64,000 bases of DNA from Escherichia phage PE37. The notes below the pieces were generated by a model. It searched no databases. It was not told the origin of the DNA and was given only the letters and a program-made list of their open reading frames with translations. Shown here one piece after another: positions 4,375-36,939 of this stretch; the stretch's first letter is position 1, and every line of letters begins with the position of its first letter. The stretch lies in sequence record NC_054929.1, one strand, 5' to 3'. The position numbers and the translations under genes were made by a program.

Positions 4375-7515
<3,141 letters not shown>

Positions 7516-28410: not shown

Positions 28411-28695
28411 ATGAAAACTTATCAAGAATTCACTTCAACGACTAACGCTTCTACTTTGACTGAAGCGACCCTTACTTCTGAAGTTATTAAAGCAAACAAA
28501 GGACGTGAAGGTAAACCGATGATTAGCCTGGTTGATGGCGAAGAAATCAAAGGTACTGTTTACCTAGGTGATGGGTGGTCTGCTAAAAAGGATGGTGCTA
28601 CAATCGTTATCTCTCCTGCTGAAGAAACTGCTTTGTTTAAAGCCAAGCATATTTCAGTAGCTCAGCTTAAAATTATTGCTAAAAATCTTTTGTAA
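28411..28695 (+). CDS. ipI: internal protein I-like, capsid-targeted
   Basis: N-terminal MKTYQEFTSTT capsid targeting sequence; position after 57B; early promoter upstream. Confidence 0.7.
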   Translation: MKTYQEFTSTTNASTLTEATLTSEVIKANKGREGKPMISLVDGEEIKGTVYLGDGWSAKKDGATIVISPAEETALFKAKHISVAQLKIIAKNLL

Positions 28696-29341: not shown

Positions 29342-29629
29342 ATGATTCTTTATGCGAAAGTATCGTCCATTGAAAATGGATATAAATATGATCAAGACGC
29401 GGCTAAAGCCTTGATTGATGATTATGGCGTTTTAACATGTTTTGAAGTTGAAAAGGTTTACATTGACCGTTCATCTTCTCAAGTTAAATTAGTAAAGGAA
29501 GACCGTAAATTTAATACAGTAAATTTTGATTTCTTTATTGAAACGGAAAAAGGTCCTCTTGAATATGATATTTTCAAGAATCCTTTGGGTCTTGAATGCA
29601 TCGTAAATATGTATTATCATAAATGGTAA
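29342..29629 (+). CDS. hypothetical protein
   Basis: 95 aa ORF, ATGA overlap with upstream. Confidence 0.55.
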   Translation: MILYAKVSSIENGYKYDQDAAKALIDDYGVLTCFEVEKVYIDRSSSQVKLVKEDRKFNTVNFDFFIETEKGPLEYDIFKNPLGLECIVNMYYHKW

Positions 29630-29726
29630 ATATGCTTTAAGAATTATTTGTTATTATTAACTCATATCGCATTGATTAATACCCTCTATCATCAAGGGTT
29701 CTTTCCTGAGAGCCTTTGTTAATAAT

Positions 29727-29799
29727 TGGGAATTAGCCAAGTTGGTAAGGCACTGGATTTTGATTCCAGGATGCAAAGGTTCGAGTCCTTTATTCCCAG
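29727..29799 (+). tRNA. tRNA-Gln (anticodon UUG)
   Basis: Cloverleaf folded by eye: acceptor TGGGAAT/ATTCCCA, anticodon loop TTTTGAT, T-arm GGTTCGAGTCC; CCA not encoded. Confidence 0.8.
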
Positions 29800-29800
29800 C

Positions 29801-29887
29801 GCGAGAATGGTCAAATTGGTAAAGGCACAGCACTTAAAATGCTGCGGAATGATTTCCTTGTGGGTTCGAGTCCCACTTCTCGCACCA
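29801..29887 (+). tRNA. tRNA-Leu (anticodon UAA), type II
   Basis: Acceptor GCGAGAA/TTCTCGC, loop CTTAAAA, long variable arm, CCA encoded. Confidence 0.85.
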
Positions 29888-29892
29888 AATTT

Positions 29893-29966
<74 letters not shown>

Positions 29967-29976
29967 ATTTAATTTA

Positions 29977-30050
29977 CTCCGTGTAGCTCAGTTTGGTAGA
30001 GCGCCTGATTTGGGATCAGGAGGTCCAAGGTTCAAATCCTTGTATGGAGA
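29977..30050 (+). tRNA. tRNA-Pro (anticodon UGG)
   Basis: Anticodon arm CCTGA-TTTGGGA-TCAGG, T-arm CAAGGTTCAAATCCTTG; acceptor has G-U pairs; CCA not encoded. Confidence 0.8.
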
Positions 30051-30052
30051 CT

Positions 30053-30142
30053 GGAGGCGTGGCAGAGTGGTTTAATGCACCGGTCTTGAAAACCGGCAGT
30101 CGCTCCGGCGACTCATAGGTTCAAATCCTATCGCCTCCGCCA
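30053..30142 (+). tRNA. tRNA-Ser (anticodon UGA), type II
   Basis: Acceptor GGAGGCG/CGCCTCC, loop CTTGAAA, long variable arm, CCA encoded. Confidence 0.85.
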
Positions 30143-30147
30143 GTTTT

Positions 30148-30223
30148 GCTGATTTAGCTCAGTAGGTAGAGCAACTCACTTGTAATGAGAAGGTCGGCGG
30201 TTCGATTCCGTCAATCAGCACCA
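30148..30223 (+). tRNA. tRNA-Thr (anticodon UGU)
   Basis: Acceptor GCTGATT/AATCAGC, loop CTTGTAA, CCA encoded. Confidence 0.85.
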
Positions 30224-30224
30224 A

Positions 30225-30299
30225 GGCCCTGTAGCTGGAAGGTTCAAGCAAGCGACTCATAATCGCCAGATGGTGGTTCAATTCCACCCAGGGCCACCA
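30225..30299 (+). tRNA. tRNA with CAU anticodon (Ile2 lysidine-type, or Met)
   Basis: Acceptor GGCCCTG/CAGGGCC, loop CTCATAA, CCA encoded; T4 tRNA-Ile counterpart by position. Confidence 0.8.
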
Positions 30300-30308
30300 A
30301 ATTAATTT

Positions 30309-30395
30309 GGGGAGTTATCCCGTAGAGGTAGCGGTGTGGACTGTAAATCCATTGTCATTGCGACTCGGGTGGTTCGACTCCATCACTCCCCACCA
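30309..30395 (+). tRNA. tRNA-Tyr-like (anticodon GUA), type II
   Basis: Acceptor GGGGAGT/ACTCCCC, anticodon arm GTGGA-CTGTAAA-TCCAT, variable arm with GTC/GAC stem, T-arm GGTGGTTCGACTCCATC, CCA encoded; D-arm imperfect. Confidence 0.6.
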
Positions 30396-30399
30396 ATTT

Positions 30400-30474
30400 G
30401 GATGTGTAGCTCAATGGCAGAGCGATCGCCTGTTAAGCGATTGGTTATAGGTTCGAATCCTATCACGTCCGCCA
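30400..30474 (+). tRNA. tRNA-Asn (anticodon GUU)
   Basis: Acceptor GGATGTG/CACGTCC, anticodon arm ATCGC-CTGTTAA-GCGAT, T-arm ATAGGTTCGAATCCTAT, CCA encoded. Confidence 0.8.
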
Positions 30475-30478
30475 AATC

Positions 30479-30554
30479 CGAGGCATAGCTCAGAAGGAAG
30501 AGCAAGGACCTTCTAAGTCCTAGGTCGTAGGTTCGATCCCTACTGCCTCGACCA
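30479..30554 (+). tRNA. tRNA-Arg (anticodon UCU)
   Basis: Acceptor CGAGGCA/TGCCTCG, D-stem GCTC/GAGC, anticodon arm AGGAC-CTTCTAA-GTCCT, CCA encoded. Confidence 0.85.
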
Positions 30555-30570
30555 ATTAAGTGAGGAAAAT

Positions 30571-30921
30571 ATGAAAGGTAATGTTTATTTAGTAGTTCAT
30601 GATTTAACATTTTATTTTAATCACAATGACACGGTTATTTCTGAACGTGTAATTAATTTGCTTTATCAACACGCGGATTATGTTTATGTCGAAAACGAAT
30701 ATGGTCATTGGCAATTTCTCAAAAATCGTTCATTTGGCTTAGATGGTTACGAATACTTTGAACGTAAAGACCTTTTAGATAAAATTTCGTTATCTACACA
30801 ATATCAAAATCATAAGTCTTTACATAAATGTCGGCTAATTCGAAATGCTGAATCTGCTTATGAAGCAATTGATTTATGGCGTTTACGCCGTGAACAAATT
30901 GATGCTTTAAAAGAATATTAA
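30571..30921 (+). CDS. hypothetical protein
   Basis: 116 aa ORF starting 17 nt after tRNA-Arg, RBS GAGGA. Confidence 0.55.
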   Translation: MKGNVYLVVHDLTFYFNHNDTVISERVINLLYQHADYVYVENEYGHWQFLKNRSFGLDGYEYFERKDLLDKISLSTQYQNHKSLHKCRLIRNAESAYEAIDLWRLRREQIDALKEY

Positions 30922-31099
30922 GAAACCGGGTCGCTACCGGTAAGTCGTCGGACTGATGTTCCCTGTTTAAGGACTGGCATTAATAAATCTTTATGTTTTG
31001 TTAATGTCCTCTTATATCACAGCAGAAACGGCGCACCGAATTATCGATTCGAGGAAATATCTTTGCCGTAAGCCGAGTAGCGTTTTTGACGGAACGTTC

Positions 31100-31235
31100 G
31101 GATATGGTCGAGATATGGCCTTTTAAAAATATTGAGTAGCGTCAACTGCTTAATAACCGGGTTCGAATCCCGGCGTTTCGTACAAACACTTGCCTTAGCA
31201 GGTGGAACCCCGACAAGGTTGCCGCAAGGCTTAGA
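31100..31235 (+). ncRNA. putative small stable RNA (T4 species 1/2 rnaC/rnaD-like), boundaries approximate
   Basis: 390-nt ORF-free interval after the tRNA cluster with a tRNA-like T-arm (CCGGGTTCGAATCCCGG), repeated GAGTAGCGT, ending at a terminator; T4 has stable RNAs near tRNA-Arg. Confidence 0.3.
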
Positions 31236-31262
31236 CCCGACCGAAAGGTTGGGGCTTTTTGG
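31236..31262 (+). terminator. rho-independent terminator (copy 1)
   Basis: Hairpin CCCGACC-GAAA-GGTTGGG followed by CTTTTT. Confidence 0.7.
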
Positions 31263-31270
31263 TATAAATA
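31263..31270 (+). promoter_or_regulatory. late promoter TATAAATA
   Basis: Exact TATAAATA about 40 nt upstream of the 31311 ATG. Confidence 0.6.
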
Positions 31271-31310
31271 TAGTAGTATATTAAATCCACGAATTAAAAC
31301 AGGAAATAAG

Positions 31311-31784
31311 ATGAAATCATATACTCAATTTTTAAATGAAGCGGTGTTAAATGAAGCATCTAGCACCGAAATTCAAGCTGTCGCAAAAGCAGCCATTGCA
31401 GCGGGTAAATATTCTTACAAAGATGCTTCTGATGAATCGCGATTCCAGTTTGCACGCGACATGAAAGCGGAAGGATTTACGGGAAATGCAGTTAGTATGG
31501 CCTGGAAAAGTTTAGTTGCTACTGGCGCTGCTTTTGCAAAGGCTTCGGGTAAACCTGCTCCTAAAGCAGATCCTAAAGTCGCACAAGAGAAAAATATTGT
31601 TAAAGGAATTATCTCCAAATATGAAGCTATCCTTAAAGAGCTTTTAGTAATCAAAACTGAAGGCCAAAAACTAGCTCGTGCTTATAGTTTCAAAGATAAC
31701 CCACATGCTCACTCTCTTGAGTATGTTGAAGACATCCAAAAAATTATTAAAGACCGCATTTGGTCTGCTAAACAAATCAAATAA
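31311..31784 (+). CDS. capsid-targeted internal-protein candidate
   Basis: 157 aa; N-terminus MKSYTQFLNEA resembles the internal-protein capsid targeting sequence; late promoter upstream. Confidence 0.65.
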   Translation: MKSYTQFLNEAVLNEASSTEIQAVAKAAIAAGKYSYKDASDESRFQFARDMKAEGFTGNAVSMAWKSLVATGAAFAKASGKPAPKADPKVAQEKNIVKGIISKYEAILKELLVIKTEGQKLARAYSFKDNPHAHSLEYVEDIQKIIKDRIWSAKQIK

Positions 31785-31793
31785 CATTCTTAG

Positions 31794-31820
31794 CCCCGAC
31801 CAAAAGGTTGGGGCTTTTTG
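31794..31820 (+). terminator. rho-independent terminator (copy 2)
   Basis: CCCCGACC-AAAA-GGTTGGGG + CTTTTTG, near-identical to copy 1. Confidence 0.7.
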
Positions 31821-31953
31821 GTATCTAGGCCTTTCCAGGCCTCTCTAGACATCATTTAGTTTCTACCCTTTATAATATATTATCCTATCCTTTGATTTCC
31901 CCTCCCTGCCCTAGAATTCCCCAAAACTTTTTAAAAATTTTTTTCACAAAACG

Positions 31954-31984
31954 GTTTACATCCTTGTCCTTCCATGGTACTATA
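31954..31984 (+). promoter_or_regulatory. early promoter (GTTTAC -35, TACTAT -10) in repeated block
   Basis: tttttcacaaaacgGTTTACa...ggTACTATacaactatcaactac upstream of 32027 ATG. Confidence 0.6.
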
Positions 31985-32026
31985 CAACTATCAACTACTG
32001 ATACAGAAAACAACTTGGAGAATGAA

Positions 32027-32290
32027 ATGGATAATTATGGTGAACTGTTCAACTTCTTTATGAAATGTGTTTCCGAAGATTTTGGTCGTACAGTGAATGA
32101 TATTAAAGTTATCGGTCCTGACCATCCGATGTTTGAAACTTACGCAGTAATGGGTAATGAAGATGGTCAGTGGTATACTGTAAAGGTTGTGATTAACATG
32201 TTCACAGCAGAAGGTTATGTTAAACTGTCTTCTAAAGTTTACCATGATAACGACGAAATCGCAGAAGAATATTTCAATAATATGAAATAA
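32027..32290 (+). CDS. hypothetical protein
   Basis: Start moved to ATG after GGAGAATGAA RBS (MDNYGELFNFF); the track extension reads through the promoter. Confidence 0.5.
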   Translation: MDNYGELFNFFMKCVSEDFGRTVNDIKVIGPDHPMFETYAVMGNEDGQWYTVKVVINMFTAEGYVKLSSKVYHDNDEIAEEYFNNMK

Positions 32291-32293
32291 TTG

Positions 32294-32323
32294 TGTACAA
32301 ACACCAAGGATGGTGTTATTATA
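32294..32323 (+). promoter_or_regulatory. early promoter candidate
   Basis: GTGTAC-aaacaccaaggatggtg-TTATTAT, palindrome CACCA/TGGTG in spacer. Confidence 0.4.
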
Positions 32324-32358
32324 GACTTATCAAAACAAATACAGAAACGGAGAAATAA

Positions 32359-32535
32359 ATGACTACTTTAATTATTTGGTTTGACGAAAATGAAGAAACA
32401 TATTGTGTGAACATTGGCGAAAGCCCAATGCCAGAATTTGAATCTTCAGATAAAAACTCGGTTATATCTTGGGCTGAAGGTTATAAAGCAGCAAAAGGCG
32501 ATGTTGAAATAGTTTACAAACTATCCGGAGTATAA
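32359..32535 (+). CDS. hypothetical small protein
   Basis: 58 aa ORF (MTTLIIWFDENEETYCV) with GGAG RBS; below track cutoff. Confidence 0.4.
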   Translation: MTTLIIWFDENEETYCVNIGESPMPEFESSDKNSVISWAEGYKAAKGDVEIVYKLSGV

Positions 32536-32578: not shown

Positions 32579-33172
32579 ATGAACACACTGAAGAAAATTG
32601 TTGAGTTTATTCGCACTAAACTTGGTTCTGCTATGGCTAAAAATCTATCTGTTGAAGAGCAGTATACTGCCGCAGCAGCAAAATTGCTTGATAAAATTAA
32701 AGATCTAAAAACTGCTTCTGTTAAATCTATTAATGAAGAAAAGCGTATTCGTGAACTTATTGTCGAAAAGAATAAGCAGGCCGAATCAAAAGAGCGTGAA
32801 ATTCGCAAGCTCCTTTCGGAAGGTCAAGATGTAACAATGCATGCTAAACTTGGTTTACTATATCGTCGAACAGCTGAGCAGTTGACTACTAAAGCTGATG
32901 GTTATGCTGAAATGCGAATTGAAATCGCCAAGAAAGTAGTTGAGTTAGATGATGCTCGCCAAGAACTTGCAGTTAAATTGGAATATATCCGTGAAACTCG
33001 TGCAGCGAATGCCCTTGGAATTAGTACTGCCGATGATGTAGTTGAAATTGCAGCGCTGACTAAGGTTGATATTGAAGATACTCTTGCTCGAGTTGAAACC
33101 TTTAACGGTAATATTTCTGGGGTTGAAACCACCTCTGCCGATGTTCAGGAATATATTAATTCTCTGAAATAA
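32579..33172 (+). CDS. coiled-coil protein, possible PspA/IM30-like
   Basis: 197 aa, predicted almost entirely helical; N-terminus loosely resembles PspA. Confidence 0.6.
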
Positions 33173-33213: not shown

Positions 33214-33822
33214 ATGAAAATGCAAAGTGATTTCAATTCAATGTTTGAAGAGTTCCAAAGACAGGTTGATGTTCCAGACCAATTATTAAATGCTCTTAAA
33301 CGTATGGCAGAAGGACGTAATTATTATTGGGGTTCTTCATATGAAACTGTTGAAAGTCTTTCTGGAAGATTTTCTAGAGGTAAAAAGTCTTTAATACGTC
33401 CTGGAATACTTATTAACAGTATTGAATCAATTCATTTATTAACATGCGATTTTGACGTTGAATTTACTGATTTTGTTTCTCCTGAATGGACGGTCTGTTA
33501 TTTAAACGACGATTATGATTATCTTGGCGTTTATAGTTTAAGTGATGCATGGTTTAAACGTAATTTACAAAAGTCAAATTTATTCTATATTGATACTACT
33601 GTAAAATTTCAGGGCAAGAAATATTTCTTTACTCTTATAGTTGACTCTGAAACAAAATATGAAAATAAACGTATTCTTAGTAAAAAGAATATCTTAACTA
33701 CTGTCGATGATCTTTTTGATAAATTCGTAGAAAATCCCAATTTTGAAAGCGATTTATTATTAGAAAAATTTGTTAAGGAATGTAGAGAATATGTCAAAAC
33801 CATCACTATACCTTCCAAGTAA
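33214..33822 (+). CDS. hypothetical protein
   Basis: 202 aa ORF, RBS GGAGTAAGTAGGA. Confidence 0.6.
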   Translation: MKMQSDFNSMFEEFQRQVDVPDQLLNALKRMAEGRNYYWGSSYETVESLSGRFSRGKKSLIRPGILINSIESIHLLTCDFDVEFTDFVSPEWTVCYLNDDYDYLGVYSLSDAWFKRNLQKSNLFYIDTTVKFQGKKYFFTLIVDSETKYENKRILSKKNILTTVDDLFDKFVENPNFESDLLLEKFVKECREYVKTITIPSK

Positions 33823-35449: not shown

Positions 35450-35980
<531 letters not shown>

Positions 35981-36465: not shown

Positions 36466-36939
36466 ATGAAAACATATCAAGAATTTATTACTGAAGCAGC
36501 TATTAATTCTCAAATTATTGCTGAATCTTTTACTGATCTTTTGAAATTTAAAAAAGGTCAAAAAATCACTGCTGTATTGGATGATGGTACAGAAGTTGAG
36601 ATGGATGTACAGGGATATAATTATGCAGTAGATGGAAAACTGTATAATAAATCTCATGCTAAATTTGATTCATTTGACGACTTTGTTAATACAGTTGAAG
36701 ATGAAAAAACTCGTCGATCCATTGCAACTGGTGATGCTAAGGTTCTTATGGCACATGGTCATGAACGCATTCGCGCTAAACAGAATAAAATGGGCGAAGA
36801 TAATTTCGCATTAGTTGGTTATCAATCTGGTAAACAAACTTATGGTTATCAGCGTACTGCTACCATGTATAATAAAAATGGTAAAATTGCCTTTGTGAAT
36901 AGTAAGGGTTCTATTCAGTACGTTAAATCGTTCAAATAA
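36466..36939 (+). CDS. internal protein (ipII/ipIII-position), capsid-targeted
   Basis: 157 aa, N-terminal MKTYQEFITEA capsid targeting sequence, basic C-terminal region. Confidence 0.7.
   Translation: MKTYQEFITEAAINSQIIAESFTDLLKFKKGQKITAVLDDGTEVEMDVQGYNYAVDGKLYNKSHAKFDSFDDFVNTVEDEKTRRSIATGDAKVLMAHGHERIRAKQNKMGEDNFALVGYQSGKQTYGYQRTATMYNKNGKIAFVNSKGSIQYVKSFK

Follow-up and report, generated by a model that had tools for sequence, protein, structure and literature searches.

Between the stable-RNA gene rnaC and the gene e.8 of Escherichia phage PE37 (sequence record NC_054929.1) a single open reading frame (ORF) stands between two nearly identical terminators, which raises the question of what such an isolated unit encodes and why the same element bounds it on both sides. 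The stretch that we analysed (64,000 nucleotides, referred to as the window) is, around this locus, a Tequatrovirus sequence with 99% identity to the RB51/RB68/wV7 group, and is read here in the reverse of the GenBank orientation of that group. A prediction made earlier from the bare sequence (the original prediction) had placed at this point a 157-aa ORF starting with MKSYTQFLNEA, and we recovered it at 31311-31784 (ORF A). We consider it likely that the locus is a one-gene late transcription unit encoding a previously unnamed internal head protein of the T4 type, housed in a modular site flanked by rnaC and e.8.

Leader, candidate promoter and virion association of ORF A

The capsid targeting sequence (CTS) is defined as the first 10 residues of the T4 internal protein (IP) IPIII (MKTYQEFIAE), in which an amber-suppressor analysis traced targeting chiefly to positions 4 and 7, and located processing at positions 8 and 10, the determinants being an aromatic residue at position 4, Phe at 7, Leu/Ile at 8 and Glu at 10 (review, PMC9026906). 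The leader of ORF A matches all four (Y4, F7, L8 and E10) and is followed by Ala, as in IPII and IPIII; the resemblance to T4 internal-protein N-termini that had been proposed for it is therefore borne out by alignment at the critical residues. Of the 598 ORFs in the window that have an ATG start and at least 40 aa, 3 carry a CTS-like start, the other two being the homologs of ipI (28411-28695; 94 aa, MKTYQEFTSTT...LTEA) and of Ip4 (36466-36939; 157 aa, equal in length to ORF A and unrelated to it in sequence). Both of these belong to PHROG families named 'internal virion protein', and ORF A to PHROG 2280, a family of unknown function.

By tblastn the family of ORF A was found in Tevenvirinae and related phages, in about 510 phage records, each of which calls the product hypothetical, and a HMMER profile search of 1.84 billion representative proteins returned 13 relatives (all of them small, with the leader or as family fragments), none of which was cellular. 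Aligning the leaders of 13 members of the family, drawn from phages of Escherichia, Klebsiella, Yersinia, Serratia and Cronobacter, shows Y/F at position 4 and F at position 7 in 13/13, with L at position 8 in 12/13. Furthermore, where the mature parts of two members share less than 40% identity, the leader is 55% identical as against 29% for the rest. In several genera the leader is thus conserved better than any other part of the protein, and relatives whose N-terminus is intact retain it (e.g. MLKFNEFLAEG, MINFSDFLNEG and MKSFSSFLNEG). A second candidate cleavage site, in tandem with the first, is missing from the shorter family members, and propeptides with several cleavage sites are on record for related proteases (PMC5694885). 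As marker peptides, SYTQFLNEAVLNEASSTEIQAVAK would report the unprocessed N-terminus, and AVLNEASSTEIQAVAK or ASSTEIQAVAK the predicted gp21-processed form.

These patterns also bear on the possibility that ORF A is an unpackaged, cytoplasmic accessory (late, or late-and-early) whose likeness to a CTS is a by-product of a shared initiation/leader recombination linker, or is due to chance. The Shine-Dalgarno and leader DNA do form a 42-nt direct repeat (76% identical) between ORF A and a second cassette gene of the same site (cassette B, described below), which could be kept for recombination, and IP genes are listed only at two other loci (PMC2839356). Such an explanation has to contend with the amino-acid conservation at positions 4, 7, 8 and 10 across genera whose DNA no longer aligns, with an LxE site that always comes next and in register, and with a motif shared in the window only with two bona fide ip homologs, and we judge it quite improbable.

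Evidence from particles is available for a close relative. Yersinia phage fD1 (phiD1, HE956711) encodes in g140 (67942-68415) a 157-aa protein with 98.7% identity to ORF A, which was flagged PPAP in an LC-MS/MS analysis of purified virions, and the fD1 particle list also includes the Ip4 homolog g129 (PMC8309999, Table S3); the fD1 mass-spectrometric data are deposited under PXD026812. The last column of that table, which we take to concern a T4 homolog, reads 'No' for g140 (PMC8309999). We consider that the fD1 data show that the protein is made and that it co-purifies with particles, which is short of proof of packaging; the paper on fPS-2/65/90 reports no proteome.

With respect to transcription, the late promoter that had been predicted between the repeats is present as TATAAATA, and lies partly inside the first repeat copy: the last 3 nt of this copy are the first 3 nt of the motif, so that the left junction of the insert falls within the promoter motif itself. 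A promoter scan found no sigma-70-like site between the terminator and the ATG, nor within the repeat. At the equivalent place the late motif reads TATAAATA in Klebsiella phage phiKp_22, TATAAATT in Tequatrovirus a48 and AATAAATA in Mosigvirus APCEc01, and the record of fPS-65 annotates it as 'predicted late promoter', within an order (terminator, predicted late promoter, CDS, terminator) that is given without interpretation.

Several observations weigh against a late-expressed internal protein. In sequence and structure, mature ORF A resembles neither IPI*, Ip2 and Ip3 nor any anti-defence protein, and the known ip genes are found at two other loci, where they are flanked by early-type promoters (PMC2839356). 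The fD1 virions were purified by ultracentrifugation only (pelleted, not banded), and the preparation contained 113-137 of the 277 phage proteins, many of them non-structural, in addition to 672 host proteins, DenV, lysozyme and NudE being among its components (PMC8309999); with a proteome this unspecific the PPAP flag is weak evidence of packaging. The late motif is one mismatch off in a48 and APCEc01 and is missing in Serratia phage PS2, in which the gene overlaps with an ORF upstream of it. Moreover, TATAAATA lacks statistical enrichment in the AT-rich window (16 occurrences observed, 10.4 expected, with 6 of 100 shuffles reaching 16): we rejected enrichment as support for the promoter, and the evidential weight of the motif consequently comes from its position and its cross-genus conservation only.

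Cassettes joined at a shared terminator

The original prediction had described the bracketing element as a near-identical 27-nt terminator. The bracketing was recovered, with 34 of 36 positions identical (94%) at a spacing of 559, and the length was revised: the direct repeat spans 36 nt, reads CTTAG[A/C]CCCGACC[G/A]AAAGGTTGGGGCTTTTTGGTAT, and the consensus that had been written out for it in fact comprises 30 nt, fitting 31236-31265 and 31795-31824. This 30-nt core has 2 matches in the 64-kb window and 0 in 100 dinucleotide shuffles. A consensus scan identified both copies as intrinsic terminators, each with a GC hairpin followed by a T-run (copy 1: -14.6 kcal/mol, z -2.5; copy 2: -19.5 kcal/mol, z -4.6), and the copy-1 element carries the annotation 'terminator' in the fPS-65 record. 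An Rfam scan of 29500-32500 returned tRNAs only, with no family for the repeat, rnaC or rnaD.

In T4 the terminator is present as a single copy, in which ...GGGGCTTTTTGGTAT runs straight into CTAAGCCTTTCCAG..., i.e. into what stands after copy 2 in the window, and both T4 and T2 are without exactly 559 bp (one repeat and the 523 bp that separate the copies). The comparison across T-even genomes that had been proposed as a check thus found the two copies to be variable among relatives, with T4 and T2 holding one copy and missing ORF A. A query with the T4 empty site is matched in a single piece by T4 isolates, the T2 record, G2540-3 and F2, and in most Tequatroviruses by two pieces with a span of about 855-860 bp, which corresponds to the filled site; the rnaC flank is present in about 690 genomes. 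ORF A is found in the same surroundings (after the tRNA/rnaC block and before e.8/e.6) in Mosigvirus APCEc01, Jiaodavirus phiKp_22 and Serratia phage PS2, and Tequatrovirus a48 has a diverged allele at the syntenic position. Given this synteny, loss through recombination between the copies accounts for the T4/T2 state more simply than a gain in the lineage of the window would, and on sequence comparison the T4 empty site looks like a loss. Of the earlier proposal that cassettes are acquired or exchanged at the repeats, exchange is supported by the exact repeat-bounded absence and by the four haplotypes given below, and acquisition is disfavoured by the synteny. A foreign origin by base composition was rejected (cassette GC 36.9%, genome 35.4 +/- 3.1%, i.e. 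within 0.5 standard deviations).

A second gene is encountered at the rnaC-e.8 site in 165 phage records. This cassette B encodes a protein of 187-188 aa with the leader MKTYAEFLTEA (in local extracts: CrRp10 1301-1864, Shfl2 901-1467 and RB69 2061-2623), and only near-matches of the AATAAATA type to the late promoter occur upstream of it. In Shfl2 it stands alone (Shfl2p135), in RB69 it lies at exactly the rnaC-e.8 site and is split into ORF149c/148c by an apparent frameshift, and in CrRp10 (where B is gp089) it follows A in tandem, the two genes being accompanied by three terminators; in EC.W2-9 and DCP2, as seen from tblastn tables alone, the matches to A and B are about 130 bp apart. Both BLASTP and hhalign align A and B over leader residues 1-10 only, by which they appear to be unrelated cargo; PHROG 2280 matches both, and on this ground a remote paralogy is possible. 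A shared leader on unrelated cargo is a hallmark of IP loci.

When the junctions are compared, the left flank and terminator (L and T, with e for the e.8 side) are followed by "GGTATAAATA..." leading to A, by "AGTTTGAATC..." leading to B, or by "GGTATCTAGGCC..." leading to e.8. The resulting haplotypes are L-T-e in T4, L-T-A-T-e in the window, L-T-B-T'-e in Shfl2 and L-T-A-T-B-T'-e in CrRp10, i.e. all four combinations (empty, A, B and A+B) occur within one genus, and every joint is located at the T-tract of the terminator. This comparison shows directly that the shared terminator is the point where cassettes are joined or lost; less than 50 bp of homology suffices for recombination in T4 (PMC2839356).

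One could argue, on the other hand, that the two copies simply remain from one ancient, moron-like insertion, which brought or duplicated a terminator, and have no continuing role in exchange: every gene needs a terminator of its own anyway, the genome-like GC content gives no sign of a recent foreign origin, and divergence has brought the identity between the copies down to 78-81% in a48 and APCEc01 (both still forming hairpins). An inert scar would leave four cassette combinations in one genus, each with its junction at one point of the terminator, to be explained, and the identity of the copies in the window and in CrRp10 (94% and 93%, respectively) suggests recent exchange or conversion; we find this explanation very improbable.

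Composition and predicted role

The AlphaFold2 model of ORF A (mean predicted local distance difference test, pLDDT, 75) consists of a disordered leader (residues 4-14 below 50), a helical N-domain, a linker rich in K/P/A and a helical hairpin. A Foldseek search of this model against the PDB returned nothing significant (best E = 1.3), so that the fold gives no functional clue, and sequence searches of Pfam, NCBIfam, PADLOC and the PDB returned no match. The mature protein (pI 9.5-9.6, 14% Lys, 2.8% Arg and 18% Ala) falls in the range of IPI*, IPII* and IPIII* (pI 9.0-9.65, 13-16% Lys), and the linker (KASGKPAPKADPK) keeps its K/P/A character in all distant homologs, even where its sequence differs. 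Taken together, the critical leader residues, the conservation of the leader, the IP-like composition and the presence of fD1 g140 in the virion list uphold the capsid-targeted protein of the original prediction.

On the assumption that this reading is accurate, RNA polymerase modified by gp55/gp33 would start at TATAAATA late in infection and stop at terminator copy 2, as the motifs, their position and the missing sigma-70-like site suggest. The 157-aa precursor would then bind the scaffolding core of the prohead through MKSYTQFLNE (the match at the four positions defined by IPIII mutagenesis points to this step), and the prohead protease gp21 would cut after Glu10, and perhaps also after Glu15. 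The predicted product, a basic, Lys/Ala-rich, all-helical two-domain protein of ~15.5-16 kDa, would be packed with the DNA and co-injected with it, and would act before phage gene expression, most plausibly against a host defence. At the level of the DNA, the shared terminator serves as the linker where cassettes join or are lost by homologous recombination, giving rise to the empty, A, B and A+B states, as the comparison of the junctions shows.

The last step in the life of the protein, i.e. its anti-defence activity, is proposed by analogy: Ip1, Ip2 and Ip3 are injected, specific inhibitors, each of a different GmrSD type IV restriction enzyme (PMC12373910). Ip4-10 had no activity on eight active GmrSD systems, and the ip1-10 genes assayed on 15 GmrSD groups apparently did not include the family of ORF A; for five of the GmrSD groups with activity against T-even phages no inhibitor is known (PMC12373910). 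We advance an anti-defence function of ORF A tentatively, as a possibility that falls somewhat on the doubtful side. A packaged protein could instead act physically, as a histone-like component of the phage chromosome that condenses DNA or neutralises its charge, or as an aid to ejection. Its basic, Lys/Ala-rich composition and its linker would suit such a role, IP lysines are in contact with the phosphates of the DNA in T4 heads (PMC3012670), and the family is an old one that keeps its synteny in several genera, which is less like the fast turnover of an arms race. We nevertheless regard a physical role as unlikely, since the gene is dispensable (T4 and T2 live without it), since it is replaced or joined at one site by the unrelated B, which fits an accessory or adaptive use, and since all three characterised T4 IPs are specific restriction inhibitors (PMC12373910).

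Returning to the internal-protein reading, its broadest form is that the rnaC-e.8 interval constitutes a third IP locus, in which late-promoter-driven and terminator-delimited cassettes (A and B, in 0, 1 or 2 copies) encode proteins that are packaged and injected by means of a variant CTS, MK[ST]Y.[EQ]FL.E. We would put this proposal at slightly less than an even chance. Neither a third IP locus nor a name for the family was found in the literature searched, whose accounts give two loci (PMC2839356); Repoila 1994 and Comeau 2007 lay outside this search, so that a prior naming, as one of the >30 IP variants on record, is possible. Literature searches by ORF name returned no relevant paper, and the leader of ORF A is not in the supplements of Silas 2025, which hold no ip sequences as text.

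If true, this form of the hypothesis would add two widespread candidates (A in ~510 and B in ~165 sequenced phages) to the injected anti-defence arsenal, and would contradict the published view in which IP genes are confined to two loci. To our knowledge, no T4 proteins other than the internal proteins enter the host cytoplasm ahead of all phage gene expression. A and B would thereby become testable candidates against orphan GmrSD defences or other first-response systems, with relevance for the prediction of host range in therapeutic T4-like phages, and the variant leader would widen the sequence definition of the CTS that is used in the engineering of T4 for protein delivery. Moreover, the locus offers a natural example of a terminator acting as a homologous linker in the gain and loss of cassettes.

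Gene neighbourhood and comparison with known systems

Table 1. Features of the rnaC-e.8 locus in the window (positions in nucleotides; functions of coding and regulatory elements are predictions).
Feature	Position	Strand	Remarks
rnaC (species 1 RNA)	31044..31182	+	last gene of the tRNA/stable-RNA operon; left locus boundary
Terminator repeat copy 1	31230..31265	+	hairpin 31236-31253, then T-tract; ends tRNA/rnaC operon; left cassette linker
TATAAATA, T4 late-promoter consensus	31263..31270	+	41 nt upstream of ATG
Shine-Dalgarno AGGAAA	31301..31306	+	5 nt before ATG; read from sequence
ORF A, candidate internal head protein	31311..31784	+	157 aa, 17.3 kDa, pI 9.5; PHROG 2280
CTS-like propeptide MKSYTQFLNE, codons 1-10	31311..31340	+	predicted gp21 cleavage after Glu10 (L-N-E/A)
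AVLNE, codons 11-15	31341..31355	+	second tandem L-N-E/A (L13-N14-E15/A16), candidate redundant cleavage site
Terminator repeat copy 2	31789..31824	+	10-bp stem 31792-31815; ends cassette transcript; right linker
Conserved right flank CTAGGCCTTTCCAGGCC...	31825..32026	+	holds e.8 early-type promoter 31955-31983

The gene order, as established by way of RB68 and T4, runs from 57B through the ipI locus, tRNA.4-.2, ten tRNAs, a 116-aa ORF, rnaD and rnaC to the cassette, and onward through e.8 (32027-32290) and e.6 to e and denV, which are followed by the Ip4 gene. The cassette site (rnaC to e.8) is thus located outside both classical IP loci (57B-tRNA.4 and denV-e). RB68 has Ip5 instead of ipI at the first of these, though it is 99% identical to the window at the cassette locus.

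To the left of the cassette, the ten tRNA genes (29727-30554) are those for Gln, Leu, Gly, Pro, Ser, Thr, Met-CAU, Tyr, Asn and Arg, with no gene for the homing endonuclease segB inside the cluster of the window; T4 has eight tRNAs plus segB, and RB68 a truncated segB in the place of tRNA-Pro. The CAU tRNA is the positional counterpart of the T4 gene annotated as tRNA-Ile. The 116-aa ORF (30571-30921; PHROG 3355, unknown function) is situated after tRNA-Arg and before rnaD, its stop overlapping the annotated start of rnaD, and is present in T2, RB68, fPS-65 and Shfl2; in T4, which is without it, tRNA-Arg is directly followed by rnaD. The stable species 2 and 1 RNAs of T4 (rnaD and rnaC; 30919-31182) are present by homology, and gave no Rfam family match even at E <= 1. 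The coordinates of rnaC were transferred from the RB68 annotation (5945-6083, offset +25099), with the T4 rnaC 3' end aligning, and its 3' trailer (~50 nt before the terminator) folds into further hairpins.

To the right, the conserved flank of Table 1 directly follows the single terminator in T4. It opens, directly 3' of copy 2, with a near-palindrome (CTAGGCCTTTCCAGGCCTCTCTAG, 31825-31848) that forms part of this invariant flank and is kept in T4, a48, RB69 and CrRp10, and partly in APCEc01. Beyond e.8, a 58-aa ORF (32359-32535; PHROG 5461, unknown function) replaces the T4 gene e.7 (111 aa) within the same hyperplastic stretch, and is followed by the homologs of e.6 (32579-33172, 197 aa; a long coiled-coil-like protein with no family assignment) and e.5 (33214-33822, 202 aa), which correspond to fD1 g137 and g136, both also particle-associated in the fD1 proteome. 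Farther on, two TATAAATA motifs stand 13 nt apart on the + strand (35452-35472), within nudE and upstream of the lysozyme gene e, for which they may act as late promoters.

The closest known counterparts of the locus are the T4 internal proteins and the Ip4-Ip10 series of the T-even phages, reportedly described by Repoila et al. in 1994 and by Mullaney & Black in 1996; IPI* is said to have been recognised as a GmrSD inhibitor by Bair et al. in 2007. ORF A shares with them the 10-residue leader M-K-(T/S)-(Y/F)-x-(E/Q)-F-(I/L)-x-E with a small residue directly after it, a mature protein that is small, basic and rich in Lys/Ala, a non-essential and polymorphic presence, the association of unrelated cargos with a common leader at one site, and repeated regulatory elements as flanks. 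It differs from them in its site, which is neither 57B-tRNA.4 nor denV-e (a feature of location rather than of mechanism), in flanks that consist of a rho-independent terminator and a late promoter instead of the early-promoter/stem-loop elements noted at IP loci by Repoila et al. (PMC2839356), in a leader that deviates at positions 3, 5, 6, 8 and 9, and in an unrelated mature sequence; moreover, packaging, cleavage and injection are, in its case, predicted.

A second parallel is provided by the PeSL (early promoter and stem-loop) cassettes of RB49/phi1 (Arbiol et al. 2010; PMC2839356). In both systems a single accessory ORF lies between copies of a conserved stem-loop regulatory element with a stem of the GGGG...CCCC type, and of two close relatives one may have it and the other lack it precisely, retaining one element. 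The repeat at ORF A is, however, a terminator whose T-tract abuts a late promoter and which occurs in 2-3 copies at one locus, whereas the PeSL element comprises a sigma-70-like early promoter and is found in dozens of copies across hyperplastic regions; as far as the PeSL mini-circles are concerned, the cassette was compared by its sequence anatomy alone. Finally, with the restriction inhibitors IPI*, Ip2 and Ip3 (Silas et al. 2025, PMC12373910) ORF A would have in common its route, i.e. that of a protein made in advance, packaged, and injected before gene expression, while differing from them in both sequence and fold.

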